Part shown: positions 3,977 through 24,047 of the stretch, piece after piece
Position numbering within the stretch: the stretch's first letter is position 1
How the letters are laid out: every line of letters starts with the position of its first letter
Assembly: GCA_964534165.1 (NCBI GenBank)
Contig: CAZHOU010000001.1
Coordinates: forward strand, 1 to 31,795
Origin: an uncultured Zetaproteobacteria bacterium
GTDB lineage: Bacteria; Pseudomonadota; Zetaproteobacteria; Mariprofundales; Mariprofundaceae
DNA: 31,795 nt
Direction of reading: 5' to 3'
Notes under the pieces: model-generated
What the model was told of the DNA's origin: nothing
Seen by the model: only the letters and a program-made list of their open reading frames with translations
The model's database searches: none
Made by a program: the position numbers and the translations under genes

Positions 3977-4042
3977 CAAACCTCCTAAGCCATTCGTGCA
4001 GGTCTCAGACCTGCATGCTTCTACTGCATTTCAGGAGGTTTG
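3977..4042 (+). promoter_or_regulatory. RBS-sequestering mRNA structure (anti-SD/SD duplex with inner hairpin)
   Basis: CAAACCTCCT (3977-3986) is the exact reverse complement of AGGAGGTTTG (4033-4042), which contains the SD of the TolC gene; inner hairpin TGCAGGTC-TCA-GACCTGCA (3997-4015). Confidence 0.75.
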
Positions 4043-4044
4043 TC

Positions 4045-5349
4045 TTGCCTATTCGAAGAACGATGCTGTCCACGCTGCTGGCGCTGGCAACGGCCGCATT
4101 CCCGGCTCTTGCAATCCCGGCGCAATCCGAAACGACGACACCCATGTCCCTGCATGAAGCCGAAAAGACCGCGCTCGGAGCCAATGCCGGACTGGCCGCA
4201 TCGCGAGCCCATGCGTCGGCCATGGCCGCCATCCCGCCGCAGGTAGGAAGCCTTCCCGACCCGAGTCTTTCCTTCGATGCCGTCAACCTGCCGGTGGACA
4301 CCTTCGCCACGGCGCAGGAGAACATGACACAATTGCGGCTGGGCCTGTCCCAGAAGATCCCCTTCCCCGGCAAACTTCGCCTGCGAAGCGAGGCCGCGCG
4401 GCTCCTGGCGTCCTCGGCCGCAATGGATACGGCGGAAACACGCCTGCGCCTGTTGCGCAACGTGCGCATCCGCTGGTGGAACCTGTTCTATCTCGATCGG
4501 GCACTGGAAATCGTGGAACGCAACGAGGATCTGCTGCGGCAATTCATCACCATTGCCCAAACCAAATACAAGGTGGGCAAGGGCCTGCAGCAGGATGTCC
4601 TTCTGGCGCAACTCGAACTCTCCAAATTGCTGGATATCGAGATCCGGCTCAAGGGCTCGCGCCGGGATGAGGAGGCGCGCTTGAACGCCCTCCTGAACCG
4701 GCCGACGAACCTCCATATTCGTCTGCCGTCACGGGTGAAGGAAACATTGCCGCCCCTTCCAAGCGAAACCAAACTGCATCAATGGGCCCTGGAATCGCGG
4801 CCCCTGCTGGCCGCACGCAGGGATCGGGTCAAGGCGGCGAAAAAACAGGTGGACCTGGCCGAACTCGACTACTACCCCGACTTCAAGATCAAAGGTGCCT
4901 GGGGCTTCCGGGGTGGGAACAACCCGGTGAACAACCAGCCGCGCCCGGATTTCGCCACTCTCGGCATCAGCCTCAACCTGCCGATCTACACCGCCACCAA
5001 GCAGGATCGTGAACTCGAACAGCGCAAGGCGGAAGTGGCCAGGGAAGAGTTCGCGCTGCGTGACACACAGGAGGCGGTGTGGTCCGAGGCATCCAACGCC
5101 CTCGCCGACTATCTCCGCGCCCGCGAACAGGCAAGCCTGTTCAAGACCGGCATCATCCCCCAGGCCAATCAGACCGTGGCCTCGATGCTGGCCGGCTATC
5201 AGGTCAACAAGGTGGATTTTCTGAACCTCGTCCGCTCTCAAATCACGCTCTACAACTATGAAACGCTGTACTGGAAAGCCCTGGCCGGGGCAAGACAGAG
5301 CCTGGCACGCCTGGAAGCGGCGGTTGGAAAGGAGATCGTTCATGAATAA
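4045..5349 (+). CDS. TolC-family outer-membrane efflux channel (CusC-equivalent)
   Basis: ORF 4015..5349; AGGAGG at 4033-4038 favours TTG 4045. Signal peptide, SLPDPSLSF, SQKIPFPGKL, LNALLNRP, ISLNLPIY repeats typical of OEP proteins; first gene of an RND triplet. Confidence 0.9.
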   Translation: MPIRRTMLSTLLALATAAFPALAIPAQSETTTPMSLHEAEKTALGANAGLAASRAHASAMAAIPPQVGSLPDPSLSFDAVNLPVDTFATAQENMTQLRLGLSQKIPFPGKLRLRSEAARLLASSAAMDTAETRLRLLRNVRIRWWNLFYLDRALEIVERNEDLLRQFITIAQTKYKVGKGLQQDVLLAQLELSKLLDIEIRLKGSRRDEEARLNALLNRPTNLHIRLPSRVKETLPPLPSETKLHQWALESRPLLAARRDRVKAAKKQVDLAELDYYPDFKIKGAWGFRGGNNPVNNQPRPDFATLGISLNLPIYTATKQDRELEQRKAEVAREEFALRDTQEAVWSEASNALADYLRAREQASLFKTGIIPQANQTVASMLAGYQVNKVDFLNLVRSQITLYNYETLYWKALAGARQSLARLEAAVGKEIVHE

Positions 5350-6721
5350 ACGCATGCTCGCCATTGTCGTCCTGAGCCTGGCGCTCGGTCTCGGGGCTGG
5401 CTACGGCCTGGCTCATCTGCGTGTCACCAAGGGCATGAACACATCCCCGGCGGCAACCGCGGGAAAGAAGGCGATATCCGAACGCAAACCGCTCTTCTAC
5501 CGCAACCCGATGCATCCGGAAATCACTTCGCCGGTGCCGGCCAAGGATGCCATGGGCATGGACTACATCCCCGTCTACCCCGAAGACCTGGGCGGTGGAG
5601 GCAAAAGGCCCGGCACTGTCGTGATCGACCCGACCGTCGTGCAATCCATCGGTGTGCGCACGGCTATCGCTGTGCGCAAGCAGATCTCCCGCACGATCCA
5701 GACCGTGGGCCGGGTGGACTACGACGAGGAGTTCATGACGCGGCTGCACCCGAAGATCAGCGGCTGGATCGACAAGTTGTTTGTCAGCGACACCGGAACA
5801 AGGGTCAAGCGCAATACGATGCTTCTGGCCTTGTATTCCCCGGAACTCGTGACCAGCGAGGAGGAATACTTACTGGCGCTGAAAAACTACGCCACGCTCA
5901 AGACCAGCCCCTTTCCCGATATCCGCAAGGGTGCCTTGGATCTGCTCCGCTCCGCCCGTGAACGGCTTGAACTGCTGGATGTTCCCAAACACCAGCTCGA
6001 GCAGCTGACCAAAACGAGAAAGGTCATGAAGAACCTGCACATCCATTCCCCGTTTCCGGGCATTGTCGTGCACATCGGTGCCCGCGAGGGCCAATACGTG
6101 ACACCCGCCACCGAACTCTACCGCATCGCCGATTTGTCGCGCGTATGGACCTACGTGGACGTCTATGAATACGAACTGCCGTGGGTTCAGGTGGGGGACA
6201 CGGCCGAAATGCGGCTGGAAGCGATCCCCGGCCGCGTGTTCACCGGCATCATCACCTACATCTACCCGTATCTGGACCCCAAGACACGAACCAACAAGGT
6301 GCGGCTCGAATTCACCAATCCGGACCTGTTGCTCAAACCGGACATGTTCGCCGATGTCACGATCCACGCCCGCCGCAAGATGAACGCCGTGGTCATCCCG
6401 ACCGAGGCCGTGATCCGAACCGGCGGAACGCCCAAGATCTTCGTCGTGCGCGGTCCCGGTGTCTTCGAGCCCCGCGACGTGCGCCTGGGCGTTTCCACCA
6501 ACGCCGAAACGCAGATTCTCGCGGGCGTGTCTCCCGGCGAACGGGTCGTGACCTCGGCGCAATTCCTGATCGATTCCGAATCCTCGCTCAAGGAAGCCGC
6601 GGCCAAGATGATGGCCCCAAAGAAATCCCCCACCCCGGTGCGGGAAGGCGGAGACAAGAAGATGAAAGGCATGCAGGGAATGGACATGCCGGAAACGTCG
6701 GCCGGGGAATCGCATGAATGA
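5342..6721 (+). CDS. cusB: CusB-type RND periplasmic adaptor subunit
   Basis: N-terminal anchor; FYRNPMHP...KDAMGMDY Met-triad region; GWIDKL, YSPELV, IADLSRVW, LKPDMFA, SAQFLIDSES; Met-rich tail. ATG 5342 overlaps the TolC stop. Confidence 0.92.
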   Translation: MNKRMLAIVVLSLALGLGAGYGLAHLRVTKGMNTSPAATAGKKAISERKPLFYRNPMHPEITSPVPAKDAMGMDYIPVYPEDLGGGGKRPGTVVIDPTVVQSIGVRTAIAVRKQISRTIQTVGRVDYDEEFMTRLHPKISGWIDKLFVSDTGTRVKRNTMLLALYSPELVTSEEEYLLALKNYATLKTSPFPDIRKGALDLLRSARERLELLDVPKHQLEQLTKTRKVMKNLHIHSPFPGIVVHIGAREGQYVTPATELYRIADLSRVWTYVDVYEYELPWVQVGDTAEMRLEAIPGRVFTGIITYIYPYLDPKTRTNKVRLEFTNPDLLLKPDMFADVTIHARRKMNAVVIPTEAVIRTGGTPKIFVVRGPGVFEPRDVRLGVSTNAETQILAGVSPGERVVTSAQFLIDSESSLKEAAAKMMAPKKSPTPVREGGDKKMKGMQGMDMPETSAGESHE

Positions 6722-7010
6722 CGCAGGCTATCCAAAAGAAAAGGCCTTCATTCCCCCTGCCTTTTCTTTGCGCAAACCAGCGACCCTGGCCCGGATTTTT
6801 CATGGGAACGCGCCTGCCTGCCGCGACTCCGGCGCAGGCATGGATGGACGGCGCAGGCAAGAAAGGGGCTGCGAAATGCAAGGGGTCACGATGCAAAAGC
6901 ACATCGGTTTCGACGCAACCCCTTCATGCTTTTCGATCGTTCAAATCCCGGCGCGTGATCATCATGAAAGATCCGGGCTGGTGATGAAGGGCATGGTGAA
7001 ATCATCATGA
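6714..7010 (+). other. Possible 98-aa ORF filling the cusB-cusA gap (unverified)
   Basis: ATG overlaps the cusB stop and TGA overlaps the cusA ATG (ATGA); no recognisable family. Confidence 0.25.
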
Positions 7011-10000
7011 TCGGGCGCATCATCGAATTGTCGCTGGCCAACCGCTTCCTGGTCTTCATGGCCACGGCACTCCTGATCGCTGCCGGCGCACTGGCCATCA
7101 AGAAGATGCCGCTCGATGCCATTCCCGATCTCTCCGACGTGCAGGTGATCGTATTCACCGAGTTCCCGGGGCAGGCGCCGCAGGTGGTCGAGGACCAGGT
7201 CACCTATCCGCTGACGACGGCCATGCTGGCCGTGCCGCATGCCAAGGTCGTACGCGGCTATTCCTTTTTCGGCTTTTCGTTCGTGTACATCATCTTCGAG
7301 GACGGCACCGACATGTACTGGGCCCGGAGCCGGGTTCTGGAATACCTGAATTACGCCGCCAAGTTCCTCCCGGCCGGCGTCACCCCGACGCTGGGGCCGG
7401 ACGCCACCGGCGTCGGCTGGGTGTACGAATACGCACTCGTGGACCGTTCCGGAAAACACGACCTGTCGGAACTCCGCTCCATCCAGGACTGGTATCTCCG
7501 GTACGCGTTGCAGACCGTTCCCGGGGTTTCGGAGGTCGCCTCGGTCGGCGGTTATGTCAAGCAGTACCAGGTGGAGGTGGATCCGAACAAGCTGGCCTTC
7601 TATAAGATTCCGCTCTCCAAGGTCAAACGCGCCATCCAGCGAAGCAACAACGATGTCGGGGGCCGCCTGATCGAGATGGCCGAATCCGAATTCATGGTCC
7701 GGGCGCTCGGCTACATCAAGTCCCTCGACGACATCCGCAACATTCCCATTGGTGTCGACAAACAGGGTACACCCATCTACGTGCGCGATGTCGCGGATGT
7801 GCACCTCGGGCCCGAACTGCGCCGGGGCCTTGCGGAGTTGAACGGCGAGGGGGAAGTGGCCGGCGGGGTCATCGTCATGCGCTATCGCGAAAATGCGCTC
7901 GAGGTCATCAAGCGCGTGAAGGCGAAGCTGGAGGAATTGAAGGCCGGCTTGCCCGACGGCGTCGAGATCGTTCCCACCTACGACCGCAGCAGCCTGAGCC
8001 TGCGCGCCGTCGAAAACCTCAAGGACAAGCTGCTGGAGGAGTTCATCGTCATCTCTCTCGTCTGCGTGCTGTGTCTGCTGCATGCCAGGAGCGCCTTGGT
8101 CGCCGTGCTGACCCTGCCGCTGGGTGTGCTCGTGGCCTTTATCCTCATGCAATGGCAGGGGCTTGCGGCCAACATCATGAGCCTGGGCGGCATCGCCATC
8201 ACGCTTGGCGCCATGGTGGATGGGGCCATTGTGTTGATCGAAAATGCCCACAAGCATCTCGAGCGGGCGCTGGTCAAAAAACAGAACGTCATTGCGAGCA
8301 GTTCGGAGCAATCTTCGGAGGCCGAGGTTGCCACCGGGGCCCCGCCTTCTCGCCATGACGCGGATGTCACCCTCACCACCAAGGAGCGCTGGAAGGCCGT
8401 GAGCACGGCCGCCAAGGAGGTCGGCCCGGCGCTGTTCTTCTCGCTCGTCATCATCACCATCTCCTACACCGCGGTGTTCACCCTGGAAGCACAGGAGGGA
8501 CGGCTGTTCAAGCCGCTGGCCTTCACCGCCACCTACGCCATGCTCGGTGTCGCCCTGCTGGCAGTGACGCTGACGCCGGTGTTGATGGGTTATTTCATCC
8601 GTGGCCTCATCCTGCCGGAGAAGAAAAACCCGGTGAATCGCGGGCTCATCGCTGTGCACCGGCCGCTTTTGAACCTCACGCTCAAGGGCAAATGGATCTC
8701 GCTTCTCTTGGCGCTGGTGCTCCTCTCAAGCGCCGCCTGGCCACTTTCCAAACTGGGGAGCGAATTCATGCCGCCGCTGGACGAGGGGGACATCCTCTAC
8801 ATGCCCACCACCTTTCCCGGCGTCTCGATCACCAAGGCCAAGGAAATGCTGCAACAGACGGACAAGATCCTGAAAACCTTTCCGGAGGTGAAGACCGTGT
8901 TCGGCAAGGTCGGTCGCGCCGAGACCTCCACCGACCCGGCCCCGCTGTCGATGATGGAGACCATCATCCAGCTCAAGCCCCGCTCCGAGTGGCCGCATCC
9001 GGAGATGAGCACACGCGCGCTGATGCGCAAGATGGACAAGGCCATTCATTTTCCAGGACTGGCCAATGCCTGGACCTATCCGATCAAGACCCGCAACGAC
9101 ATGCTCTCCACCGGCATCAAGACGCCCATCGGCGTGAAGATCTCCGGTCCCGACCTTTCCACCCTGCAGCGCCTGACGGAAAAGATCGAGGATGTGCTGA
9201 AGGGCCTTCCGGAAACCCTGTCCGCGTTCGGTGATCGTGCCGTCGGCGGCCATTACGTGGACTTCCGCATCAAGCGCAAGGAGGCGGCCCGGTACGGCCT
9301 GACCGTTGGGGACGTCGAGGACGTGATCCAATCAGCCATCGGCGGCATGAACATCACGCAGACGGTGGAAGGACTGGAACGCTACCCGGTCAACCTGCGC
9401 TACCCGCGGGCCTACCGGGATGACATTGAGGTCTTGAAGCGGGTGTTGATCCCGACTCCCACCGGCGCCCAGATCCCGCTGGTGCAGGTGGCGGACATTC
9501 GCCTTGTCGGCGGCCCGCCGTCCATCAAGAGCGAGGCGGCCCGTCCCAATGCCTGGATCTACGTCGACCTCAAAACCTCGGATATCGGCGGCTATGTGGC
9601 CAAGGCCAAACAAGCCATCGCCGCACATGTCAAGCTTCCGCCCGGCTACGCCATTGGCTGGTCCGGCCAGTTAGAGTACATGCAGAGAGCGGCGGCCCGG
9701 CTTCGAATCGTCATCCCGCTGACGTTGGTGGCCATCTTCCTGCTGCTCTACTTCAATTTCCGCAATCTGACGGAGCCGCTCGTGGTCATGCTCGCCGTCC
9801 CCTTTGGGCTGATCGGAGGATTCTGGCTCGTCTGGTGGCTGGGTTTCAATCTCAGCGTCGCTGTCGGTGTCGGCTTCATCGCCCTGGCCGGTGTGGCAGT
9901 GGAAATCGGAGTTCTGGTGCTCACATTCATCGACCAGGAGGTGGCTGAGTTCCGGAAGGACAGGCAGGGAGGTGGGCTGACCGCGGTGGAGATCATGGAA

Positions 10001-10246
10001 GCGGTACGCAGCGGCACTGGCAAACGCGTGCGTCCGATCGCGATGACGGCAACGGCGGTAATCGCGGGGCTGTTGCCCATCATGTGGGGGTCGGGCACCG
10101 GCTCGGATGTCATGCAACGCATCGCCGCGCCGATGATCGGCGGCATGCTGACCACCACCCTCCTGTGCCTGCTGATCCTGCCGCTCATCTACGCCCTGAT
10201 CCTGCAGGTGCAGGAGCGGCGCCGCCTGAAGAGGGAGGAGCAATGA
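7007..10246 (+). CDS. cusA: CusA/SilA-family Cu(I)/Ag(I) RND efflux permease
   Basis: LDAIPDLSDVQVI, GPDATGVGW, NIMSLGGIA; the three metal-site Met contexts EFMPPLDEG, PAPLSMMET, DMLSTG; KRVRPIAMT. Confidence 0.96.
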   Translation: MIGRIIELSLANRFLVFMATALLIAAGALAIKKMPLDAIPDLSDVQVIVFTEFPGQAPQVVEDQVTYPLTTAMLAVPHAKVVRGYSFFGFSFVYIIFEDGTDMYWARSRVLEYLNYAAKFLPAGVTPTLGPDATGVGWVYEYALVDRSGKHDLSELRSIQDWYLRYALQTVPGVSEVASVGGYVKQYQVEVDPNKLAFYKIPLSKVKRAIQRSNNDVGGRLIEMAESEFMVRALGYIKSLDDIRNIPIGVDKQGTPIYVRDVADVHLGPELRRGLAELNGEGEVAGGVIVMRYRENALEVIKRVKAKLEELKAGLPDGVEIVPTYDRSSLSLRAVENLKDKLLEEFIVISLVCVLCLLHARSALVAVLTLPLGVLVAFILMQWQGLAANIMSLGGIAITLGAMVDGAIVLIENAHKHLERALVKKQNVIASSSEQSSEAEVATGAPPSRHDADVTLTTKERWKAVSTAAKEVGPALFFSLVIITISYTAVFTLEAQEGRLFKPLAFTATYAMLGVALLAVTLTPVLMGYFIRGLILPEKKNPVNRGLIAVHRPLLNLTLKGKWISLLLALVLLSSAAWPLSKLGSEFMPPLDEGDILYMPTTFPGVSITKAKEMLQQTDKILKTFPEVKTVFGKVGRAETSTDPAPLSMMETIIQLKPRSEWPHPEMSTRALMRKMDKAIHFPGLANAWTYPIKTRNDMLSTGIKTPIGVKISGPDLSTLQRLTEKIEDVLKGLPETLSAFGDRAVGGHYVDFRIKRKEAARYGLTVGDVEDVIQSAIGGMNITQTVEGLERYPVNLRYPRAYRDDIEVLKRVLIPTPTGAQIPLVQVADIRLVGGPPSIKSEAARPNAWIYVDLKTSDIGGYVAKAKQAIAAHVKLPPGYAIGWSGQLEYMQRAAARLRIVIPLTLVAIFLLLYFNFRNLTEPLVVMLAVPFGLIGGFWLVWWLGFNLSVAVGVGFIALAGVAVEIGVLVLTFIDQEVAEFRKDRQGGGLTAVEIMEAVRSGTGKRVRPIAMTATAVIAGLLPIMWGSGTGSDVMQRIAAPMIGGMLTTTLLCLLILPLIYALILQVQERRRLKREEQ

Positions 10247-10719
10247 GAGAGAAAACCATGCGAAAGATCGTTTGTAGCGTCACCTGCATCCTGTGCATCG
10301 GATTCGCACCGGGTACGGTTGTACAGGCTCAGGAGGAACCACACCACCAGGTGGATGGCGCGCAAAAAACCCGGGCACTTGAGGGTGTAGCCATGATTCG
10401 GGAACACGTGGATGGTTACACGGTGAGCTTCCGCGTCATGCCCGCGACAGCGGACATGCGGCACGGCGGCACGCACAATCTGATGATTCGGGTGGAAAAG
10501 GACGGACGGGCGCTTCACGACCTGCTCGTCAACTCCAGGGTGTCCCACCCGATCAAGGAGACGGAGAACAAGATGATGGCCAGAATGGGGGATTGGTACA
10601 TGGCCGGATTTGATCTGGGTCATCCCGGAACACATCAAATCATGGTCCTGTTCAAGACTCCGGACGGGAAGGTCCATCTGGGAAGCATCGAATATCGAAC
10701 AGGGAGGAACAAGAAATGA
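10243..10719 (+). CDS. Exported Met/His-rich small protein (YtkA/FixH-like fold suspected), paralog A
   Basis: ATG overlaps cusA stop; signal peptide; motif KMMARMGDWYM; clear similarity to 11432..11890. Confidence 0.75.
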   Translation: MREKTMRKIVCSVTCILCIGFAPGTVVQAQEEPHHQVDGAQKTRALEGVAMIREHVDGYTVSFRVMPATADMRHGGTHNLMIRVEKDGRALHDLLVNSRVSHPIKETENKMMARMGDWYMAGFDLGHPGTHQIMVLFKTPDGKVHLGSIEYRTGRNKK

Positions 10720-11435
10720 ACATCAATGAGACGACAACCACAGTTGCAGGTATACGAACCATCCTTCAGGAAGCGCTCCAGCCCGTGCGTGCGGGATTGC
10801 TGATGGCGACAGGAGCCATGATCCTCGGCGTGCTGTGGGCCGGATACATGGCGATCAATCATGAGCAATTGCACGGCGGCTTCGAGAAGCAGGAAGCCGT
10901 ACTCAAGGCGGGAGGAACACCACCACGGATCGATGAAAATAACACGTCAATGGGCATCAAGCTGATTCCCCGGGCCTATGCCCACGGGGATCACGAAGAC
11001 CATGGAACAGGCCTTCCCGATGCTTTGCACCAGCATTCCCACTCGGGCAGCCTGGCCATGGATGCCATGCGGCGCCTGCTGCGCGGCCACATCCATTGGA
11101 TGGGACTTGGACTCCTGTCCGCCATGATGTTGCTTGTCCTCGCCTTCACTTCCCTGCGACCCGGCTGGAAAACCCTCCTCGGATGGGCCTTAGGCATTGG
11201 CGCGCTGGCCTACCCTTCCGCCTGGATCCTGATGGGCTTCCGCACCGTGGTCATGGGCCCGGATGCAGCCAAAGCAAGCGTGATGTGGCTGTTCGTCCCG
11301 CCAGCCGTCCTGCTGCTGGGATCGCTGGTCGTCGTTTTCGGTATCCTGATGCTTGAAATGACGGGTTGGCACAGGAAGACATTTTTCCCCCGCTTTTTTG
11401 AAAAGCCCGTGCCGGTTGCCGAGGAACGGGAATGA
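10716..11435 (+). CDS. 4-TM membrane protein with His-rich loop
   Basis: Four hydrophobic segments, loop AHGDHEDH...LHQHSH, HIH motif at the start of TM2; overlaps neighbours by 4 nt at both ends. Confidence 0.75.
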   Translation: MNINETTTTVAGIRTILQEALQPVRAGLLMATGAMILGVLWAGYMAINHEQLHGGFEKQEAVLKAGGTPPRIDENNTSMGIKLIPRAYAHGDHEDHGTGLPDALHQHSHSGSLAMDAMRRLLRGHIHWMGLGLLSAMMLLVLAFTSLRPGWKTLLGWALGIGALAYPSAWILMGFRTVVMGPDAAKASVMWLFVPPAVLLLGSLVVVFGILMLEMTGWHRKTFFPRFFEKPVPVAEERE

Positions 11436-11890
11436 AATTTCTGCCGCTCTTTCTTGTCGCCCTTGGCCTGATGGACCCCGGCTACGTCCACGCCACCGAG
11501 GCTGGGCCCGGCCACAACCAGGCTTCGATGCGGCATGAGGAGGGATTCATCGTCCGCAAGGGGATTCGCGACGATTACACGGTGGTCTTTCACATCATGC
11601 GCTCACCCAAGGGCATGCGCTACAGCAAGGAGCAGTATCACCTGATGGTGGTGGTGGAGAAGGAAGGCCGGCCGATCACCGGCCTGCACATGATCTCCAG
11701 GGTCAAACACCCCGACGGAAGCGTTGAACGGAAGAGCATGATGCACATGGGAGAATGGTACATGGCGCTCTACAACCTGAGTCACGATACGGGCAGGCAT
11801 TGGATCACCGTCGAATTCGAGGTGGGTGGAGAGAAATACCTGGCCGGCACCTATTATCCTGAAATGGATTTTAGTGGTGAGTCAAGATGA
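11432..11890 (+). CDS. Exported Met/His-rich small protein, paralog B
   Basis: Signal peptide; motif KSMMHMGEWYM; similarity to 10243..10719; coupled start and stop. Confidence 0.75.
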   Translation: MKFLPLFLVALGLMDPGYVHATEAGPGHNQASMRHEEGFIVRKGIRDDYTVVFHIMRSPKGMRYSKEQYHLMVVVEKEGRPITGLHMISRVKHPDGSVERKSMMHMGEWYMALYNLSHDTGRHWITVEFEVGGEKYLAGTYYPEMDFSGESR

Positions 11891-12276
11891 ATCCCATGAA
11901 GTCGAAAAGCTTGTTTTCAATCTTGCTACTGATTCTCTTGGCAAGCACGATGAACTTTTTCCCCGAATCCTCATGGGGAGAGCCCTTGCAGATGGTGGAT
12001 CCCAAAAATGTCTGCATGGTCAACGACAAGAACATGGGCAAGCCGCAAATTCCCATTATCGTACAAGGCCGAACCTATTACGGCTGTTGCAACATGTGCG
12101 TGGGCGCACTGACCAATGATCAAGAAATGCGCCGGGCCATCGATCCGCTAAGCGGCCGAAAGGTGGACAAGTCTCAAGCGATCATTGGTGCGAGAGAAAA
12201 TGGGGACGTGCTCTATTTCGAGAGCAGATCAAACTTCGCTGCTTATCAAAAAAGCCATAAGAGGGGACGGCCATGA
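11887..12276 (+). CDS. Exported TRASH/YHS-domain metal-binding protein
   Basis: Signal peptide, VCMVND...GRTYYGCCNMC, AIDPLSGRKVDK. Confidence 0.8.
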   Translation: MNPMKSKSLFSILLLILLASTMNFFPESSWGEPLQMVDPKNVCMVNDKNMGKPQIPIIVQGRTYYGCCNMCVGALTNDQEMRRAIDPLSGRKVDKSQAIIGARENGDVLYFESRSNFAAYQKSHKRGRP

Positions 12277-12506
12277 AAGAAATCATCTTCTGGATCGGCG
12301 GCATGAAATGCGACGGATGCGAACTGACCGTCCGAAAGGCACTGTTGAAACTCGGCGGGATCATCGATGTCCATGCCAATCACAAGACAGGTCAAGTGCG
12401 ACTGAAGATCCATGAACCCGATTTCAGCATCCGGGAAGTTGACAACACCCTTTGCAGCCTCGGCTTTGAACCCATTGTTTATGAAGGCCTCAAGCATGCC
12501 AGATAA
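12273..12506 (+). CDS. HMA-domain copper chaperone (CopZ-like)
   Basis: 77 aa with IGGMKCDGC metal-binding loop and ferredoxin-like pattern. Confidence 0.88.
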   Translation: MKEIIFWIGGMKCDGCELTVRKALLKLGGIIDVHANHKTGQVRLKIHEPDFSIREVDNTLCSLGFEPIVYEGLKHAR

Positions 12507-12813
12507 CGAAACAGCCATCGAAATGGAACGAAGCTTTCGGGTGGACAAAACACAGTGTGCGGGGTGTGAGGCCACCATCGAGCAACGGCTTCTCGCCATC
12601 CCGGGTGTACTGGATGCAAAGGCGGATGCTGCAACCGGCGAGATCCGGGTTCGTTATGATTTGCGCAAAGTCCGTTTCGATACTCTTCCGACTGTCGTTG
12701 AAGAGGCCGGATTTCCACGTGTCTTTGAGTTCAGCGATGAACATCACCAGGATTTCCTCTGGAGTCTGAAGGAGGAGGAGGCTCTGAAGGAAGCAAGGCG
12801 CCATGCGAAGTAG
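12496..12813 (+). CDS. HMA-domain protein with acidic/His C-terminal extension
   Basis: TQCAGC loop, IPGVLDAKAD, VRYDLRKV; tail DEHHQD. Start moved to ATG 12496 overlapping the upstream gene end. Confidence 0.8.
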   Translation: MPDNETAIEMERSFRVDKTQCAGCEATIEQRLLAIPGVLDAKADAATGEIRVRYDLRKVRFDTLPTVVEEAGFPRVFEFSDEHHQDFLWSLKEEEALKEARRHAK

Positions 12814-12840
12814 CGGACACTCTCCCGCGAGCGCTCCGCC

Positions 12841-12904
12841 CGGTGGGCTTCATGTTGAACGATGGAGGAGGATCCGAATTGAGCGTCGAGTGGGAAGCCC
12901 ACCG
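12841..12904. repeat. Perfect 11-bp inverted repeat with 42-nt spacer
   Basis: CGGTGGGCTTC (12841-12851) and GAAGCCCACCG (12894-12904); spacer contains GGAGGAGG. Confidence 0.7.
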
Positions 12905-13002
12905 AAACCGTTCATTGTGGCGGCACGTGAACTCCCCATCCGAACCTTAGCCCGCGCGTGGACGAATCCGCAGATCTTTCCGACCGTTGCCGGGGGAGCG
13001 GG

Positions 13003-13740
13003 ATGATCCGGGATCCGGTATGCCTGATGGTGGTCCACCCCGGAAACGCGGCCGGCATGTTGGAGTACGAAGGCCGCAGTTACTATTTCTGTTCCAAGGC
13101 ATGCCGGAATAAGTTCATACAGCGACCGCAGAAGTTCATTGAGAACACCCCCGGTATGCGCATAACCGTTGGAGTCATGGGCTCGGCCGATACGGAGCAT
13201 ACCGATGCCATCCGGGAGCGGGTGTTTGCGATGGGTCAGGCTATTGCCAAGCGAGGATTGGTCCTTGTCACCGGAGCTTGCCCGGGCTTGCCCTATGATT
13301 GCGCCATGGGTGCAAAAAAAGCAGGAGGTCTGTCAGTCGGCACCTCTCCGGCCCTGAGTCTCGATGAGCATGTCCACAAGTATCACTCTCCCCCCGATGC
13401 TTTTGATGTATTGATTTATACCGGTAGTGGGTTGATGGGGCGCGAGGTGACAAACATTCGCTCCAGTGACATGGTGATTATCGTGGGGGGGCGCTCGGGC
13501 ACCCTTGGGGAATTCGCCATTGCCTACGATGAAGGAAAGCTGATCGGCGTACTCAAGGGCAGCGGTGGTATCACGGATCTGATTCCGGACCTGGTGGCAA
13601 GCTTTGGCAAAAACACGGGGGCGTATATCGTCTATGCCACCGATCCCAATTCCTTGGTTGCACAGCTCCTCTCACGCTATGAAACTCACCATTTCAGGCG
13701 GCCGTCGTGCTTTTGTGACGAGCGGCCGGCCTCCGGGTAA
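13003..13740 (+). CDS. YHS domain fused to a LOG/SLOG-family nucleotide-binding domain
   Basis: DPVCLMVV...YEGRSYYFCSKAC (YHS), then ITVGVMGSA, VTGACPG, GGRSGTLGEF (LOG). Start at ATG 13003 after a GGGGGAG SD. Confidence 0.85.
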   Translation: MIRDPVCLMVVHPGNAAGMLEYEGRSYYFCSKACRNKFIQRPQKFIENTPGMRITVGVMGSADTEHTDAIRERVFAMGQAIAKRGLVLVTGACPGLPYDCAMGAKKAGGLSVGTSPALSLDEHVHKYHSPPDAFDVLIYTGSGLMGREVTNIRSSDMVIIVGGRSGTLGEFAIAYDEGKLIGVLKGSGGITDLIPDLVASFGKNTGAYIVYATDPNSLVAQLLSRYETHHFRRPSCFCDERPASG

Positions 13741-13742
13741 CC

Positions 13743-14681
13743 ATGCCACCCTCTCGAATTGGAGTGGTGTTGAGCGCAGGCGGTATACGCGGCGTCTATG
13801 CTCACACGGGATTCCTGCAAGCCGCGGAGGAGATGGACATTCCCATCTCGGCCATGGCCGGATGTAGCGCGGGCGCCGTCGTGGGTGGAATCTACGCGAG
13901 TGGGACCGCATTGAAAACGTGGGCACAGGCTCTCTACAGGGTGCGGCCGGAAGACTTTTGGCCCCCACGATCGTTATGGTGTTCCATGTGGGATGTGGTC
14001 GTAACCAAAGGCCGAAGGTTCACGGGCATCTCCAAAGTGGACCCTGCAACCACATTCTGCCGCAAACACCTGGCGGTCTGCGATTTCGAGGATTGCCGCA
14101 TCCCGTTCTATGCCCTTGCAATCTGTCTTGCCAGTGGAGAAAAAACCGTTTTCTCGAAAGGGGATCTGGCACCGCGTATTGTCGCCAGTGCTGCAATTCC
14201 GTTTTTGTTCCAGCCGGTTGAGATTGAAGGAAAGTATTTTTGCGACGGTGCCGTCATTGACCTGGCGCCAACCGATGCGATTTGTTGCAAGCATGGTCTG
14301 GATGTCTTGATCGTCCACCATGTCGCAAACCGGAAACGGGGGTTCCATGGCGTAAGAGCGGCATCCCCGGAAGCCTGGCCTATGGTGGAGATTCTCGACA
14401 CATTGCTATTCCGTCACCGTCCGTGGTACCTCTCCGAGCAAAGACTCGCGTTCAGGCGCTGCCCCTGCGGCTGCAAGGCGTTGATTGTGGTCTTGGAACC
14501 CGATTTGCCGGAATTGCCCTGGCCCCAAACGCAACAAGGGCCAACCATACTTCGCTCGGCCTGCAATCAAGTCAAATCCTTGCTGGCCCCACATTTGGAA
14601 GCGTTGTGCAGGAATCCAACCAGCCTTTATGCATTGGCGAGAAACGTTCGCCAAATCCGCGGCAGGGACGTACAATGTTAG
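13743..14681 (+). CDS. Patatin-like phospholipase
   Basis: Oxyanion loop LSAGGIRG, nucleophile GCSAG, ASAAIP, catalytic DGA. Confidence 0.88.
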   Translation: MPPSRIGVVLSAGGIRGVYAHTGFLQAAEEMDIPISAMAGCSAGAVVGGIYASGTALKTWAQALYRVRPEDFWPPRSLWCSMWDVVVTKGRRFTGISKVDPATTFCRKHLAVCDFEDCRIPFYALAICLASGEKTVFSKGDLAPRIVASAAIPFLFQPVEIEGKYFCDGAVIDLAPTDAICCKHGLDVLIVHHVANRKRGFHGVRAASPEAWPMVEILDTLLFRHRPWYLSEQRLAFRRCPCGCKALIVVLEPDLPELPWPQTQQGPTILRSACNQVKSLLAPHLEALCRNPTSLYALARNVRQIRGRDVQC

Positions 14682-14714
14682 GAAATCCGGCAAGCTCTAC
14701 GGAGGATGTGAGTA

Positions 14715-14798
14715 ATGTACTGTTCCCCGTTCTACGACTTGCGCAGAAACCCGCATACGATGAATCCATGGGTAGCGCCCCCCGATCTCCTTGCGTAG
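14715..14798 (+). other. Possible 27-aa upstream ORF before copA ([27 protein letters not shown])
   Basis: GGAGG at 14701-14705, ATG 14715, TAG 14796-14798; no family recognised. Confidence 0.25.
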
Positions 14799-14973
14799 CC
14801 GCTCTTCGACACAAAAGAGGTTTTTCCATGCTTCTGCGCCATCCGGATCCCAAGCAGTTGTGGGTTTCGGCTTCAAGCGATGTGACTCCGGTCATGGCAG
14901 CCGCCGTTCCATGCGGGGGCCATGGGGTGGGAAACAAACTATTTGCACGATCAATGTTGGAAAGGAGAGCGGC

Positions 14974-17544
14974 ATGAGAAAAGACCCGGTATGCGGCATG
15001 GAGGTTGACGAAAAGAGCAGGTTCCGCCGCACCTTTCGTGGCGCCGAATTCCTGTTCTGCAGCGAACGTTGCCTCGAACGCTTCAGCGAGAATCCAAACG
15101 ACTGGTTGCCCGAGAAATGCGCCTTCGATCCGGTCTGCGGCATGAAGGTGCCTCTCGAATCCACGAACCGCATCGAACATGCCGGACAAAACTATTATTT
15201 CTGTTCGCAGCACTGCATCGACAAGTTCCGTGAAAACCCCGGCGCCTACACGGGCAGGAAACACCCTCCCCGTCACGAACACGAGAAGAAGCCGACACCG
15301 GAAACCACCGCTGCGGAAGGGATGTATTTCTGCCCCATGTGCCCCGGGCAAGAGCAGCAGGGGCCTGGGGTGTGCAAATCGTGCGGCATGGCCCTGGAGC
15401 CGATGCCGGGAGCCCAAACACCCGGGAAGACCGAGTATTTCTGTCCCATGCATCCGGAGATCGTCCGTGATCAGCCCGGGAGTTGCCCGAAGTGCGGGAT
15501 GGCGCTGGAAGCGCGCCTTGTCGCCGTCCAGGAAGAAGAAAATCCGGAATACCGGGATATGCTGCGGCGTTTCAAGCTCGGCGTGGTGCTGATCGTTCCC
15601 CTGTTCCTCCTCGCCCTCGGCAGCGAACTCGCGCCCTCTCACCTGCCCGCATGGCTGTCGCCGAAGCTCGTCCAGTGGCTCGAATTCATCCTTGCCGCTC
15701 CCGTCGTTCTGTGGGGTGGCTGGCCCTTCTTCGTCCGCGGCTGGCAATCGCTCTTCCACCGGCATCTGAACATGTTCACGTTGATCGGCCTGGGCGTGGC
15801 GGTTGCCTTCACCTACAGCCTCGTGGCACTGCTAGCCCCCGATTTGTTCCCGGCGATCATGCGCAAGGCCGGGGGGCGGGTTGACGTTTATTTCGAGGCC
15901 GCGGCCGCCATCACCGTCCTCGTGCTGCTGGGGCAGGTGTTGGAGCTGCGCGCCCGATCCCGCACCAACGAAGCCATCAAGCTCCTGCTCGGCATGGCGC
16001 CGAAAACGGCCCGGCGCGTCCGTGCCGACGGCAGCGAGGAGGATGTGCCGCTGCAAGACGTCCATCCCGGCGATATTCTGCGCATCCGGCCGGGAGAGAA
16101 GGTGCCGGTGGATGGCGTGGTCACCGATGGCGAGAGCCATGTAGATGAATCGATGGTCACCGGCGAGCCGATGCCGGTGGTGAAAAGCGCGGGCGATCCC
16201 CTGATCGGCGCCACGGTCAACGGCAACGGCACGCTGCTCATGCGGGCCGAGAAGGTTGGATCGGAAACCCTGTTGGCGCAGATCGTGGACATGGTCCGCG
16301 AGGCGCAGCGGACCCGGGCCCCGATCCAAAGGCTCGCCGACATGGTGGCCTCCTGGTTCGTGCCCGCGGTCGTGGCGGTCTCCGCCATCACCTTCGTCGT
16401 CTGGTTCGTGGCTGGCCCCGAGCCCCGGCTTGCGCATGCCGTCGTCAACGCGGTCGCCGTTCTGATCATTGCCTGTCCCTGCGCCCTGGGGCTGGCCACA
16501 CCGATCTCGATCATGGTCGGTACCGGCCGCGGCGCCACGGCCGGTGTTCTGATCAAGAACGCCGAGGCCCTGGAGATGATGGAAAAGGTGGATACACTGG
16601 TCGTGGACAAGACCGGCACACTGACCGAGGGCAAACCGCGGCTTACCAGCATCCTTCCGCTCGGTGATTTCAGTGAGGAGGAAATCTTGAAATGGGCCGC
16701 TGGTGTCGAACGCGCCAGCGAGCATCCCCTGGCCACGGCCATACTGGAAGCGGCGCGAATACGCGGCCTCAAACCGGAATCCATCGAAAATTTCAAGGCC
16801 GTCACCGGCAAGGGAGTGCGCGCGAAGGTCGCAGGGCACGAAATCCTGCTGGGCAATGTGGCCCTGATGCGGGAAGCCGGCATCGACACCTCCCCCATGG
16901 AAGCGCTTCGGGGAGAACAAAGACAGGCCGGAGAGACCATCCTCCATCTTGCCGTGGACGGGGAGGCGGCCGCGCAGCTCGGTGTCTCCGACCCGATCAA
17001 GTCCTCGACACCCGCGGCCATCCAGGCCTTACATGCCGAGGGTCTTGAAGTGGTGATGTTGACCGGGGACCGGCACGACACCGCCGCGCTCGTTGCGGAA
17101 AAACTCGGAATCGATCGCGTCATCGCCGAGGTCCTGCCGCAGCAAAAGGCGGAGGTCGTGAAGGAACTGCAACGCGAGGGACGCATCGTGGCCATGGCCG
17201 GAGACGGCATCAACGATGCCCCGGCGCTGGCCGCCGCCCATGTCGGCATCGCCATGGGAACGGGTACGGATGTGGCAATGGAGTCGGCCGGAATCACGCT
17301 GGTCAAGGGGGATCTGAACGGCATCGTCCGAGCCCGCCGCCTATCGCGGGCCGTGATGCGGAACATCCGTCAGAATCTGTTCTTCGCCTTTGTTTACAAC
17401 TCCCTCGGCGTGCCGGTCGCTGCCGGTGTCCTATATCCTTTCTTTGGCGTCCTTCTTTCACCGATCATCGCCGCGGCGGCCATGAGCTTCTCCTCGGTTT
17501 CGGTGATCACCAATGCCCTCAGACTGCGGAAAGTGAGGCTGTAA
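14974..17544 (+). CDS. copA: Cu(I)-translocating P1B-1 ATPase with two YHS and two CPM-type metal-binding domains
   Basis: DPVCGM x2, [37 protein letters not shown] and MSFSS; SD AAGGAG before ATG 14974. Confidence 0.96.
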
Positions 17545-23920: not shown

Positions 23921-23974
23921 GGCCTGAACCGCGCCCGCTTGGCGGTTCGGGCCGTTTGCGTCTATGATTTTTTT
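23921..23974 (+). terminator. Probable terminator hairpin
   Basis: 12-bp stem 23921-23932/23942-23953 (one G-U); the T7 run at 23968-23974 is somewhat distant. Confidence 0.45.
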
Positions 23975-24047
23975 ATGCATCCGGACCAGGGAGATGCAAA
24001 CGCGCCTTCTCGAAGCGGAACCAGTGTCACAAAAAACCGGGGGAATC

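Follow-up and report, generated by a model that had tools for sequence, protein, structure and literature searches.

The stretch of DNA analysed here, referred to as the window, comprises 31,795 nucleotides from an uncultured Zetaproteobacteria bacterium and carries, on its forward strand, two adjacent genes within a copper-export cluster. The first gene (13003..13740, from an ATG at 13003 to the stop at 13740) encodes a protein of 245 residues, termed YHS-SLOG for its Pfam YHS and LDcluster4 domains, and the second (13743..14681) encodes a patatin-like lipase of 312 residues. The two open reading frames are 2 nt apart, as the initial annotation had claimed, with the junction sequence placing the patatin ATG at 13743 directly past the TAA of YHS-SLOG and these 2 nt. 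The surrounding copper cluster is likewise borne out by Pfam. The genes cusC, cusB and cusA (OEP, HlyD_D23 and ACR_tran) occupy 4015..10246, two CopZ-like HMA genes lie upstream of the pair at 12273..12813 (12273-12506 and 12412-12813, the start of the second being provisional; HMA E-values of 4.4e-11 and 1.4e-12), and copA, coding for a P1B ATPase with two YHS and two HMBD domains at its N-terminus, is located downstream at 14974..17544, all on the forward strand. The start of YHS-SLOG is placed at 13003, and not at the GTG at 12958, because a GGGGGAG sequence lies about 7 nt 5′ of this ATG and because homologues open with M-x-x-D-P-V-C. The GC content at 12-15 kb of the window is 0.54-0.58, against approximately 0.62 in the flanks. 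Scans of positions 12500-15200 gave no usable signal for either sigma-70 promoters (two promoter-like sites, 1.3 expected) or terminators (two terminator-like sites, 2.7 expected).

YHS-SLOG is a cytosolic protein, with no signal peptide seen in its sequence. Its N-terminal YHS/TRASH-type domain (residues 3-46; 13009..13140) matches PF04945 with an E-value of 4.6e-12 and 46.2 bits against a cut-off of 30.3 (49.5 bits in a genome-wide search with this model), and is followed by a domain on residues 53-218 (13159..13656) that matches PF18306, known as LDcluster4 or SLOG cluster4, with an E-value of 6.9e-44 and 149.6 bits against a cut-off of 26.3. The latter assignment also draws on conserved columns, alignments and Foldseek, and the AF2 model of the whole protein has a pLDDT of 91.5 and a pTM of 0.88. 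The architecture recurs widely: homologues number 5919 at E ≤ 1e-3, and all 120 of those listed combine YHS with PF18306, at 62-100% identity, in Zeta- and Gammaproteobacteria and Nitrospirota. The orthologue of a congener is 78% identical, identity across phyla is 55-78%, and 45 columns are invariant in an alignment of 38 sequences. The YHS ligand set, Asp/Cys-x2-Cys followed by Cys-x3-Cys, can be read from the sequence as D4, C7, C30 and C34, each of which is present in 44 of the 45 alignment rows L001-L045 (SLOG loci, best 80 of 458). The same pattern of one Asp and three Cys is given, in the available part of the source, for the YHS domain of a Mycobacterium phlei cyclase, the experimental precedent for a copper switch acting on an enzyme through such a domain (PMC4626032). 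With these four putative ligands, the YHS domain of YHS-SLOG most likely binds copper. The window's genome contains three PF04945 matches, two of them in copA and one in YHS-SLOG, leaving copA as the sole other YHS-bearing gene found there.

The SLOG families were reportedly defined by Burroughs et al. in 2015. The nearest sequence relatives of the present domain are TM1055 and the Moco carrier proteins (MCPs), with best E-values of 9e-12 to 4e-13 (3.8e-13 to 6y01) and one of 2e-9 to 2iz5, and the best Foldseek matches are 1rcu, 2iz5 and 6y01 (E-values of 2e-10 to 5e-10; TMt 0.79-0.85). Of the metal-binding YHS domain fused to a LOG/SLOG domain that was initially annotated, both domains are thus confirmed by Pfam, and what does not stand is LOG proper, the domain belonging instead to the TM1055/MCP branch of SLOG cluster4. 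According to the available part of the source, the catalytic residues of LOG enzymes are an Arg (Arg155 of CgLOGII) and the Glu of PGGxGTxxE (PMC5379747). YHS-SLOG keeps this Glu as E170, within the motif GGRSGTLGE. Alignment to the LOG Rv1205 places an invariant Gly146 in the column of the catalytic Arg and R147 in the next column, that of a Lys, equivalences that rest, as do those to the MCPs, on alignments at 25-32% identity in which a shift of one residue would bring R147 onto the catalytic Arg. Curated LOG models remain below their cut-offs (TIGR00730, 29.3 versus 96.35; NF058542, 23.7 versus 300), as does the equivalog TIGR00725 (68.4 bits versus 106.9). Because the catalytic Arg is missing by alignment, the proposed NMP phosphoribohydrolase activity is doubtful, and the SLOG domain is probably not an enzyme of the LOG type. 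The anion- and Moco-site residues of RoMCP are Arg42, Ser67, Arg89 and Thr109 in the available part of its description (PMC7470044); Arg89 and Thr109 are matched by R147 and T167, while A117 stands opposite Ser67 and no residue stands opposite Arg42. In the 38-sequence alignment, H123, R147, E148, D156, T167, E170 and K203 are invariant. With R147, T167, E170 and many other polar residues retained, this TM1055/Moco-carrier type of SLOG body would be expected to bind a ligand that bears phosphate, possibly processing it as well.

Two cysteine segments had been singled out as lying near the C-termini of the two proteins. Both RRPSCFC (YHS-SLOG residues 232-238; 13696..13716) and RRCPCGC (patatin residues 238-244) are present, and both are conserved in their families. 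The location holds for YHS-SLOG, the tail of which is predicted to be disordered (pLDDT below 50 for residues 236-245 in the AF2 model), but the patatin motif is not truly C-terminal, since some 70 residues follow it. Among rows L001-L045, which are mostly proteobacterial (best 80 of 458 SLOG loci), C236 is present in 42 of 45, C238 in 44, C93 in all 45, C100 in 42 and C34 in 44. The actinobacterial-type rows L046-L064 of the same set, among which L054 is proteobacterial by a quick tree, have instead Ala93 and Ser100 (18/19 each), His34 (16/19), V or I at position 236 (18/19) and V or M at position 238 (13/19). Cys93 and Cys100 are specific to the copper-island form of the SLOG domain. Together, the four extra cysteines of this form (C93, C100, C236 and C238), absent from the actinobacterial type, fit an older enzyme that in this version responds to Cu(I).

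The patatin matches PF01734 on residues 8-178 with an E-value of 6.6e-22 and 79.1 bits against a cut-off of 27.7, and its AF2 model has a pLDDT of 82.7. Conservation identifies the codons of the catalytic Ser42 (in G-C-S-A-G; 13866..13868) and Asp168 (in C-D-G; 14244..14246). G13, G14, R16, S42 and D168 are invariant in all 32 aligned homologues, with the GxSxG, GGxRG and DG motifs intact; S42 is also kept in 9/9 more distant relatives, and D168 and G169 are invariant in both sets. Past the Pfam model lies a Cys/His region (14283..14474) composed of C181 C182, H192 H193 and C240-P-C242-G-C244, in which all of these residues, P241 included, are invariant in 32/32 homologues. This conservation is specific to the subfamily, as the CC and C-x-C-x-C motifs are present in relatives at 35-38% identity and gone in those at 22-30%. 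By tblastn, one of two patatin paralogues in the window's genome aligns with residues 8-176 only and the other gives no alignment, so that neither matches the Cys/His region. From the 150 best profile matches, eight long or atypical proteins were scanned with Pfam for YHS-patatin fusions, and no YHS domain was found in any of them. The protein is accordingly described here as a predicted Ser-Asp lipase with its catalytic residues intact, from a small subfamily marked by invariant CC, HH and CPCGC, in which the Cys cluster would form a putative metal site of its own. Its nearest solved structure is PlpD (Foldseek E-value of 1.8e-15, 27-28% identity), against 13-15% identity to CapV, and its best NCBIfam match is RssA (74.9 bits, under the cut-off of 272), whereas CBASS_lipase scores 26.6 bits, its cut-off being 200. 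The comparison with CapV made initially is therefore not upheld; by these profile and structure searches, the patatin is nearer to PlpD and RssA. In PADLOC-DB 2.0, YHS-SLOG matches no family and the patatin matches only generic phospholipase effectors, at 22.2 and 19.8 bits.

Genomic associations were surveyed in the best 80 of 458 SLOG candidate loci and the best 80 of 198 patatin candidate loci, many of which derive from related MAGs, and in which genes were called as greedy longest ORFs, a rough procedure, especially in high-GC DNA. For the patatin, a metagenome scan with the single sequence yielded no relative, and a scan with the patatin alignment yielded relatives. Either copA or cusA is found in 28 of the 80 SLOG genome loci; of the 48 that extend 3 kb or more to each side, 19 contain such a gene. 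The 80 patatin metagenome loci give the same count (28/80), rising to 16/31 with flanks of at least 3 kb and 12/21 with at least 5.5 kb, and all nine zetaproteobacterial patatin loci fetched contain copA or cusA, six of them without SLOG. The chance expectation of a copper gene nearby is about 1%, the window's genome having one CopA-type gene (E ≤ 1e-20) in 1.74 Mb. The association is uneven across the best 80 SLOG loci: CopA, CusA or CusB is encoded in 23/45 of L001-L045, and any copper-linked family in 31/45. Only seven other loci, all within L065-L079, have copA, cusA or cusB among L046-L080, and a copper gene is near YHS-SLOG in none of the 18 actinobacterial-type loci of L046-L064, where the YHS domain is significant. 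Because Actinomycetota carry YHS-SLOG with no copper gene nearby, the fusion is not in itself a copper adaptation.

The two genes are more often apart than together. Of the loci anchored on one gene, only 10 of 80 include the other, for SLOG anchors (best 80 of 458) and patatin anchors (best 80 of 198) alike, and seven of the 11 patatin-bearing zetaproteobacterial genomes have no YHS-SLOG match. The best-80 sets nevertheless hold 16 distinct loci besides the window in which both occur, always co-directional and in 14 cases adjacent, with SLOG preceding the patatin in 10 and following it in six. Both genes thus recur together and near copper genes, contrary to what the initial annotation had said would refute it. 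A separate observation is that the pair, being neighbours in 14 of these 16 loci and in either order, may have a link more specific than that between two independent accessories. Complex prediction for the two proteins (score 0.00, mark 0.32) speaks neither for nor against binding.

In Actinomycetota and Vulcanimicrobiota, the partner of SLOG is a beta-CASP RNase, the gene for which adjoins SLOG in 20 of the best 80 of 458 loci. Fusions of the two form five clusters, with the domain order confirmed for P0241 (692 residues). The nearest beta-CASP orthologue in the window's genome (46% identity) is on another contig, and none was found in the other three zetaproteobacterial carriers of YHS-SLOG. 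The patatin, for its part, is accompanied by lipid-type genes, which in the best 80 of 198 loci encode a geranylgeranyl-reductase-like flavoprotein (23), a lycopene-cyclase-domain protein (22), ICMT/PEMT-like proteins (20), CFA synthase (8) and a cardiolipin-synthase-like PLD (7; 243 bits). By rough gene calls, the slot beside the patatin in these loci is taken by a CBS-pair protein in 13, by SLOG in eight and by an HD-GYP-like protein in three. Cysteine modules also recur elsewhere in the islands, as an ABC ATPase-YHS fusion, a C-terminal Cys cluster on the flavoprotein and an N-terminal CxxC...CCxxC on the HD-GYP-like protein.

YHS-SLOG and the Cys-rich patatin are real, widespread and unstudied accessories of bacterial copper islands. 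The explanation we favour, with moderate confidence, is that each is an accessory gene in its own right within a widespread, modular copper-stress island, YHS-SLOG being copper-responsive and the patatin lipid-acting; both are probably Cu(I)-responsive enzymes, separately Cys-tagged, of an island rich in lipid genes. In the window, the 2-nt gap suggests that the two are translationally coupled. The copper-island YHS-SLOG would be the Cu(I)-responsive form of an older enzyme, for which the beta-CASP ribonuclease would be the ancestral partner, and the patatin would most likely remodel or repair membrane lipids under copper stress, beside the other lipid enzymes of the island. A more speculative extension, to which we give limited credence, is that copper control is post-translational and distributed, with each cytosolic island enzyme (patatin, cardiolipin-synthase-like PLD, geranylgeranyl-reductase-like flavoprotein, ABC ATPase, HD-GYP-like protein and SLOG protein) bearing its own thiolate-rich sensor in the form of a YHS domain, the CPCGC/CC/HH set or a terminal Cys cluster. 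Cytosolic Cu(I) would then directly switch both membrane-lipid remodelling and nucleotide or RNA turnover, and YHS-SLOG, or a CBS-pair protein in its place, would be the ligand-sensing partner beside the lipase.

Alternatively, YHS-SLOG could act for CopA as a copper chaperone or buffer, with Cu(I) exchanged between its YHS domain and those at the N-terminus of CopA and with the SLOG domain as no more than an oligomerising scaffold. Over 42 residues, the YHS domain shares 44% identity with a CopA YHS domain in a genome with no others, many loci have copA next to the gene or close by, and extra cysteines and a disordered CxC tail are present. The MCP relatives are tetramers, according to the available part of PMC7470044, and in cluster P0246 a SLOG domain occupies the N-terminus of a P-type ATPase, the usual place of metal-binding domains. 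A scaffold, however, would have no need of 45 columns held invariant across phyla, among them H123, R147, E148, D156, T167, E170 and K203; the SLOG body is also found without YHS, alongside the beta-CASP RNase; and P0246 is a single cluster whose ATPase is of type II (Cation_ATPase_C) and not a copper pump. The chaperone role is held to be rather improbable.

CapV is activated by cGAMP, and the initial annotation envisaged a comparable pair here. The two genes would form a dedicated module of sensor and effector, in which copper bound by the YHS domain switches nucleotide hydrolysis of the LOG type, and the patatin is activated by the reaction product or by the SLOG protein directly. The 2-nt spacing and the co-directional, mostly adjacent genes of the 16 two-gene loci are in keeping with it, as is the frequent presence of another nucleotide-binding protein (CBS pair, SLOG or HD-GYP-like) next to the patatin, which fits interchangeable regulators. 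Against it stand the 70 of 80 loci in each direction that lack the other gene, the zetaproteobacterial genomes with patatin and no SLOG, the Gly in the catalytic-Arg column, the CBASS_lipase and PADLOC scores, and the beta-CASP RNase as the main partner of SLOG elsewhere. With the genes mostly apart, the LOG Arg absent and the lipase closer to PlpD/RssA than to CapV, there is no indication that a SLOG product activates the patatin, though this might still happen in the subset of loci where the two are neighbours. An obligate CapV-like pair is unlikely, and the module as a whole is considered quite improbable.

Copper binds the dithiolene of molybdopterin, and the SLOG domain might be a Moco carrier protecting the copper-sensitive dithiolene of this cofactor under copper stress. 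Its best matches do include the two characterised MCPs (Foldseek E-value of 4.5e-10 and TMt 0.82-0.85, besides the sequence matches above), and the LOG catalytic Arg is missing in MCPs also, as far as the available part of PMC5379747 describes them. Neither MoaC nor MoeA_N was found in the window's genome (89.8% complete), however, so Moco synthesis by the host is not apparent, and MoaC was found in only one of the three other zetaproteobacterial carriers (present in G017; not found in G039, 99% complete, or G045, 91% complete). Moreover, RoMCP Arg42 has no counterpart, the partnership with beta-CASP has no Moco link, and identity is only 26-32%, just above the band of 20-25% at which the RoMCP authors doubt homologues in the available part of their paper (PMC7470044), a figure that neither establishes nor contradicts MCP membership. 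Such a role is very unlikely. Least credible of all is an anti-phage or conflict system, a SLOG sensor with a lipase effector hitch-hiking in a mobile metal island: the variety of effector-like enzymes beside the SLOG gene (patatin, PLD, Schlafen/AlbA_2, beta-CASP nuclease and HD domain), the patchy distribution (4/121 zetaproteobacterial genomes) and the GC dip across the pair would suit it, but YHS-SLOG has no PADLOC match and a conservation across phyla that is extreme for a conflict gene, the PLD resembles cardiolipin synthase, and the associated genes are those for copper handling and lipid enzymes, none of phage or defence type having been seen.

Accounts of copper resistance usually centre on pumps, chaperones and oxidases. 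The present families, a cofactor- or nucleotide-binding SLOG protein and a lipase, each with a cysteine module of its own, have no described role, yet they are found repeatedly in the copper clusters of several Pseudomonadota classes and of one Nitrospirota MAG; literature searches returned nothing on the YHS-SLOG architecture or on patatins that contribute to resisting copper. Should copper gate YHS-SLOG and the patatin directly, this would show how cells respond to cytosolic Cu(I) by tuning their membranes and their nucleotide or RNA metabolism. The large, uncharacterised SLOG cluster4/TM1055 branch would also gain a first functional handle, in the form of its beta-CASP RNase partner and copper-tagged variant. 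The proposal is testable in culturable carriers, which among the matches include Methylotenera mobilis 13 (L014), Sedimenticola selenatireducens (L032) and Nitrosococcus halophilus Nc 4 (P0091).

Compared with known systems, the window patatin shares its fold most closely with the PlpD/RssA-type patatins, to which it adds the C-terminal extension with CC, HH and CPCGC and a copper-island context. The CBASS phospholipases CapV and CapE also have the patatin fold, yet are second-tier Foldseek matches (E-values of 1e-11 to 1e-8), and Pfam annotation of the recurrent neighbour clusters showed no CD-NTase-like family. With the LOG enzymes (Rv1205, 7w2i; CgLOGII, 5wq3), YHS-SLOG has in common the superfamily, the fold and the G-T-x-x-E residues G166, T167 and E170, but E-values are only 1e-4 to 1e-2, and both the GGRSGTLGE motif and Gly146 set it apart. 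It resembles TM1055 (1rcu), CrMCP (2iz5) and RoMCP (6y01) in the Arg and Thr of the anion/phosphate site and in having no Arg in the LOG column. It differs from them, beyond its low identity and the missing Arg42, in a 7-residue insertion with the invariant H123 and a near-invariant E122 (at least 90%), in the added YHS domain and Cys tail, and in carrier genomes that mostly lack a detectable MoaC. Closer in sequence are the uncharacterised beta-CASP RNase-SLOG pairs and fusions such as P0241, the SLOG domain of which is 56-61% identical to that of the window; this partnership is older and wider, and the fusions, unlike YHS-SLOG, have no YHS domain. Comparable in design is the class IIIc adenylyl cyclase of M. 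phlei, in which a YHS domain of the same ligand pattern is likewise fused to a nucleotide-handling catalytic domain. That YHS domain is C-terminal, whereas in YHS-SLOG it is N-terminal and the partner is SLOG instead of a cyclase; the available part of the cyclase report describes no copper-efflux gene context (PMC4626032). This cyclase, which copper specifically turns on through its YHS domain according to the same part of the report, is the only experimental precedent found for the probable role of the YHS domain of YHS-SLOG (Linder 2015, PMC4626032).

Every gene between approximately 4.0 and 21.3 kb of the window lies on the forward strand. The copper cluster comprises cusC, cusB and cusA (4015-10246), four small genes (10240-12276), two HMA genes (12273-12813), the Pfam-identified YHS-SLOG (13003-13740) and patatin (13743-14681) genes, and copA (14974-17544), whose product carries two YHS and two HMBD domains; genes for a cytochrome c, a TlpA-like redoxin, a histidine kinase and an NtrC-type regulator follow 3' of copA on this strand, in that order. 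The ATG at 13003 is taken as the start of YHS-SLOG because GGGGGAG lies just upstream and the N-termini of homologues coincide with it. The patatin ATG falls 2 nt after the YHS-SLOG TAA stop, and the pair is bounded by non-coding gaps of approximately 190 and 290 nt, around which simple scanning for promoters and terminators turned up nothing beyond the level of shuffled sequence. A cyclopropane-fatty-acyl-phospholipid (CFA) synthase gene (23964-25325, forward strand; CMAS, E = 3.6e-98) lies past the regulator and the cyc2 region, and its tie to the cluster is uncertain.

A 129-residue protein (11887-12276, forward strand) seems to carry a signal peptide, together with a segment resembling YHS (V-C-M-V-N-D ... 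G-R-T-Y-Y-G-C-C-N-M-C). Neither Pfam nor NCBIfam matches it; it is possibly a secreted, divergent copper protein of YHS/TRASH type. The GC content of positions 12001-15000 is 0.54-0.58, against approximately 0.62 on both sides. Among 121 zetaproteobacterial genomes, YHS-SLOG is matched in four (E ≤ 1e-20) and the patatin in 11 (E ≤ 1e-40), and this patchy distribution, with the GC dip, is compatible with horizontal acquisition of that part.

The first protein had been described in the initial annotation as a YHS domain fused to a LOG/SLOG domain. The YHS fusion stands (Pfam, 46.2 bits against a cut-off of 30.3), and the partner matches SLOG cluster4 (LDcluster4; E = 6.9e-44). Its best sequence matches of solved structure are the Rippkaea Moco carrier protein (RoMCP; 6y01, 3.8e-13), TM1055 (1rcu, 9.4e-12) and Chlamydomonas MCP (2iz5, 2.1e-9), with LOG enzymes at just 1e-4 to 1e-2. 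A Foldseek search with an AF2 model (pLDDT 91.5, pTM 0.88; tail 236-245 disordered) gave the same ranking, with 1rcu, 2iz5 and 6y01 at 2-5e-10, LOGs at 1e-8 to 1e-6 and DprA at 2e-7 and weaker. According to PMC5379747, LOG catalysis requires an Arg together with the Glu of the PGGxGTxxE motif; at this Arg position MCPs carry Ala. Aligned with the Rv1205 LOG, YHS-SLOG has an invariant Gly146 in the catalytic Arg column and R147 on the next (Lys) column, and keeps E170. The ranking and Gly146 place the domain in SLOG cluster4, on the TM1055/MCP branch, rather than with LOG, the residue equivalences coming from alignments at 25-32% identity. According to PMC7470044, RoMCP Arg89 and Thr109 bind anions at a proposed Moco/phosphate site; these align with R147 and T167, and RoMCP Arg42 has no counterpart. 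A seven-residue insertion in the family contains an invariant H123 and a near-invariant E122 (at least 90%). Invariance at 45 columns over 38 sequences from several phyla suggests that the SLOG body is an enzyme or a highly specific binder rather than a scaffold.

YHS-SLOG has 5919 homologues at E ≤ 1e-3 in a 90%-clustered protein collection. All 120 listed (62-100% identity) combine YHS with PF18306, and their names include Mariprofundaceae, Gammaproteobacteria, Nitrospirota and Nitrosococcus halophilus; databases label the homologues no more specifically than "YHS domain-containing protein" and "TIGR00725 family". Of 458 loci confirmed in a scan covering 185,579 species genomes, the best 80 (L001-L080) were examined for neighbours by tblastn with 16 window proteins, requiring matches of at least 180 residues at 38% identity or more for copA and 40% or more for cusA. 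Either gene was near YHS-SLOG in 28 of these 80 loci, in 19 of 48 flanked by 3 kb or more on each side, and in 14 of 42 flanked by 5.5 kb or more. When neighbours were clustered and given Pfam labels, CopA, CusA or CusB occurred in 23 of the 45 loci L001-L045 (mostly Pseudomonadota), and at least one copper-linked family (CopA, Cus, MerR, DUF5676, DUF2933, DUF411, small YHS proteins or ICMT-like) in 31; CopA/Cus occurred in just 7/35 of L046-L080. A Schlafen/AlbA_2-domain protein (266 residues, E = 1.7e-17) is encoded directly downstream of YHS-SLOG in three gammaproteobacterial methanotroph-type loci (L029, L030, L033); in L035 (Ectothiorhodospiraceae) its gene precedes YHS-SLOG by two genes.

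In 17 of the 35 loci L046-L080, and in three more among L001-L045, the SLOG gene immediately adjoins one for a beta-CASP metallo-beta-lactamase RNase, which resembles aCPSF1/Cas14-type ribonucleases at scores below the cut-offs of those models. By Pfam, Actinomycetota SLOG forms keep a significant YHS domain, which forms such as those of Vulcanimicrobiota and Chloroflexota lack. Eighteen longer relatives were retrieved by a further search, among them five clusters of beta-CASP and SLOG fusions of approximately 690 residues (beta-CASP then SLOG, an order confirmed for cluster P0241) and one 436-residue fusion in which an MBL-fold (Lactamase_B_2) domain comes after SLOG. These neighbours and fusions make the RNase the oldest and widest partner of the SLOG clade, and one met mainly outside copper clusters; the copper-island setting characterises the proteobacterial-type branch. 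The genome holding the window encodes a beta-CASP RNase on a separate short contig (C86:129-1520, reverse strand; locus L175), sharing 46% identity with the actinobacterial partner of SLOG, and no orthologue was matched in the other three zetaproteobacterial carriers (G017, G039, G045).

The copper-island proteins also bear a distinctive cysteine signature. In L001-L045, Cys occupies position 34 of the YHS domain in 44/45, position 93 in 45/45, 100 in 42/45, 236 in 42/45 and 238 in 44/45; in L046-L064 these positions hold His (16/19), Ala (18/19), Ser (18/19), V/I (18/19) and mostly V/M, respectively. The YHS ligands C7 and C30 are each kept in 44 of the former 45. The sole exception among L046-L064 is L054, proteobacterial (Thioalkalispiraceae) by tree position and name. 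A quick ML tree computed for the SLOG domain (81 rows) has a branch (support 92) that separates off the YHS-less forms; the 18 actinobacterial-type rows form one clade (support 99), the Cys-rich rows being the poorly resolved remainder. The counts per locus group and the tree show that thiolate enrichment accompanies the copper context, and this is the best sequence-level argument for Cu(I) handling by this version. The Cys segments originally remarked upon, RRPSCFC in YHS-SLOG and RRCPCGC in the patatin, were both found.

The patatin (Pfam, E = 6.6e-22) belongs to a small, sharply defined, Cys-rich subfamily. C240, P241, C242 and C244 are invariant in 32 aligned homologues, as are C106, C167, C181, C182, H192, H193 and the catalytic S42 and D168; C181-C244 lies entirely outside the Pfam model coverage (residues 8-178). 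By tblastn, one paralogue in the same genome (L085) aligns over residues 8-176 only and the other (L084) gives no alignment. Relatives at 35-38% identity retain CC and C-x-C-x-C, whereas those at 22-30% do not, and only 58 proteins, mostly fragments, reached E ≤ 1e-30 when 1.84 billion representatives were searched with a profile. Pfam identified no YHS domain in eight long or odd proteins scanned from the 150 best of these profile matches.

The patatin belongs to copper islands independently of YHS-SLOG. It lies directly downstream of YHS-SLOG in all four zetaproteobacterial SLOG genomes, and copA or cusA was present in 9/9 patatin loci fetched from this class outside the window, including six lacking SLOG; the tenth (G049), which matches at 39% identity where its contig ends, was omitted. 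A metagenome scan with a patatin homologue alignment (A2) confirmed 198 loci, and among the best 80, copA or cusA was nearby in 28 (16 of 31 with flanks of at least 3 kb, 12 of 21 with at least 5.5 kb) and YHS-SLOG in 10. The genome holding the window, a zetaproteobacterial MAG judging by what its closest relatives are called (1.74 Mb, 89.8% complete), has one CopA-type gene, and therefore a random gene would be expected within 6 kb of copA less than 1% of the time. The proximity to copper genes that the initial annotation proposed is thus borne out for both genes.

Around the patatin in the same 80 metagenome loci, the recurring families include a GG-reductase-like flavoprotein (23), small YHS proteins (22 and 13), a lycopene-cyclase-domain membrane protein (22), CopA (21), an ICMT/PEMT-like methyltransferase (20), a CBS pair (18), DUF5676 (17), cytochrome c (15), an HD-GYP-like protein (10), CFA synthase (8; the family also present in the window), a cardiolipin-synthase-like PLD (7), MacB/FtsX (7), an ABC ATPase fused to YHS (7) and MerR (6). 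Many members are lipid-modifying enzymes, and Cys modules recur on cytosolic members. The ABC-transporter ATPase (286 residues; ABC_tran 6.8e-37, C-terminal YHS 1.1e-13) adjoins MacB/FtsX permeases and occurs in L104, L106, L124, L157, L165, L167 and L172. One representative flavoprotein (L144:4055-5209) ends in C-x4-C-H-C-x2-C-x3-C and one HD-GYP-like protein (L105:5024-5785) begins with CxxC...CCxxC; both seem to be additional cases of island enzymes bearing Cys modules, each read in a single representative.

Pooling three locus sets, after dropping SLOG matches below 50% identity, patatin matches below 45% and any match under 55 residues, gave 23 loci with both genes, or 16 after collapse at 90% patatin identity. 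The pair suspected initially does recur: the genes are co-directional in all 16, immediate neighbours in 14 (gaps of 12-184 nt by tblastn) and 1.0 and 2.1 kb apart in the others, with SLOG first in 10 and patatin first in six, over several SLOG subclades. Adjacency kept through a change of order exceeds expectation from shared island membership. The link is optional, not constitutive, because 70 of 80 loci, whether SLOG- or patatin-anchored, hold only one of the two genes. By rough gene calls, the immediate patatin neighbour in the 80 loci is a CBS-pair protein in 13, YHS-SLOG in eight and an HD-GYP-like protein in three, the geranylgeranyl-reductase-like flavoprotein often lying one gene further out; that these are interchangeable nucleotide-binding partners is only suggested.

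From the observed domains, conservation, associations and fusions, we infer copper binding, gating, a ligand class and a lipid role. On balance, the two proteins are somewhat better read as separate, cysteine-tagged enzymes that are probably Cu(I)-responsive than as anything else: a YHS switch would act on a SLOG body binding a phosphate-bearing small molecule, for which the beta-CASP partnership points to RNA-derived nucleotides, and the patatin is predicted to be a working lipase that probably has a metal site of its own in the Cys/His cluster. The neighbours of the patatin suggest membrane-lipid remodelling or repair under copper stress.

That YHS-SLOG is instead a chaperone or buffer for CopA is unlikely, although its YHS domain is 44% identical to one in CopA and the only three YHS domains of this genome are all in copA and YHS-SLOG. 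Also in its favour is P0246 (1015 residues; a single cluster, on two contigs), in which SLOG cluster4 (residues 27-183, 54% identical to that of the window) is N-terminal to a type-II P-type ATPase with Cation_ATPase_C, occupying the position where copper pumps bear metal-binding domains; a chaperone would, however, leave the invariant ligand-site residues unexplained. An obligate sensor-effector pair on the lines first envisaged, in which LOG products activate a CapV-like patatin, is decidedly improbable despite the adjacency, as the two distributions are separate, the LOG catalytic Arg is missing and the patatin failed CapV tests. A Moco carrier, as the structural matches might imply, is very doubtful, MoaC and MoeA being undetected in this 89.8% complete genome and MoaC in two of the three other carriers. 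A defence system is highly improbable, given no PADLOC support and extreme sequence conservation.

In the literature collection searched, no paper dealt with the YHS-SLOG architecture or with a patatin acting in resistance to copper. For the YHS domain, the closest parallel is the M. phlei adenylyl cyclase, in which, according to PMC4626032, copper on an Asp and three Cys specifically turns on the fused enzyme. The same four ligands are found in YHS-SLOG, whose YHS domain most likely works by analogy with it. YHS-switched enzymes, SLOG cluster4 proteins and patatins are already known as kinds, and the YHS-SLOG and patatin described here are a variant of these.
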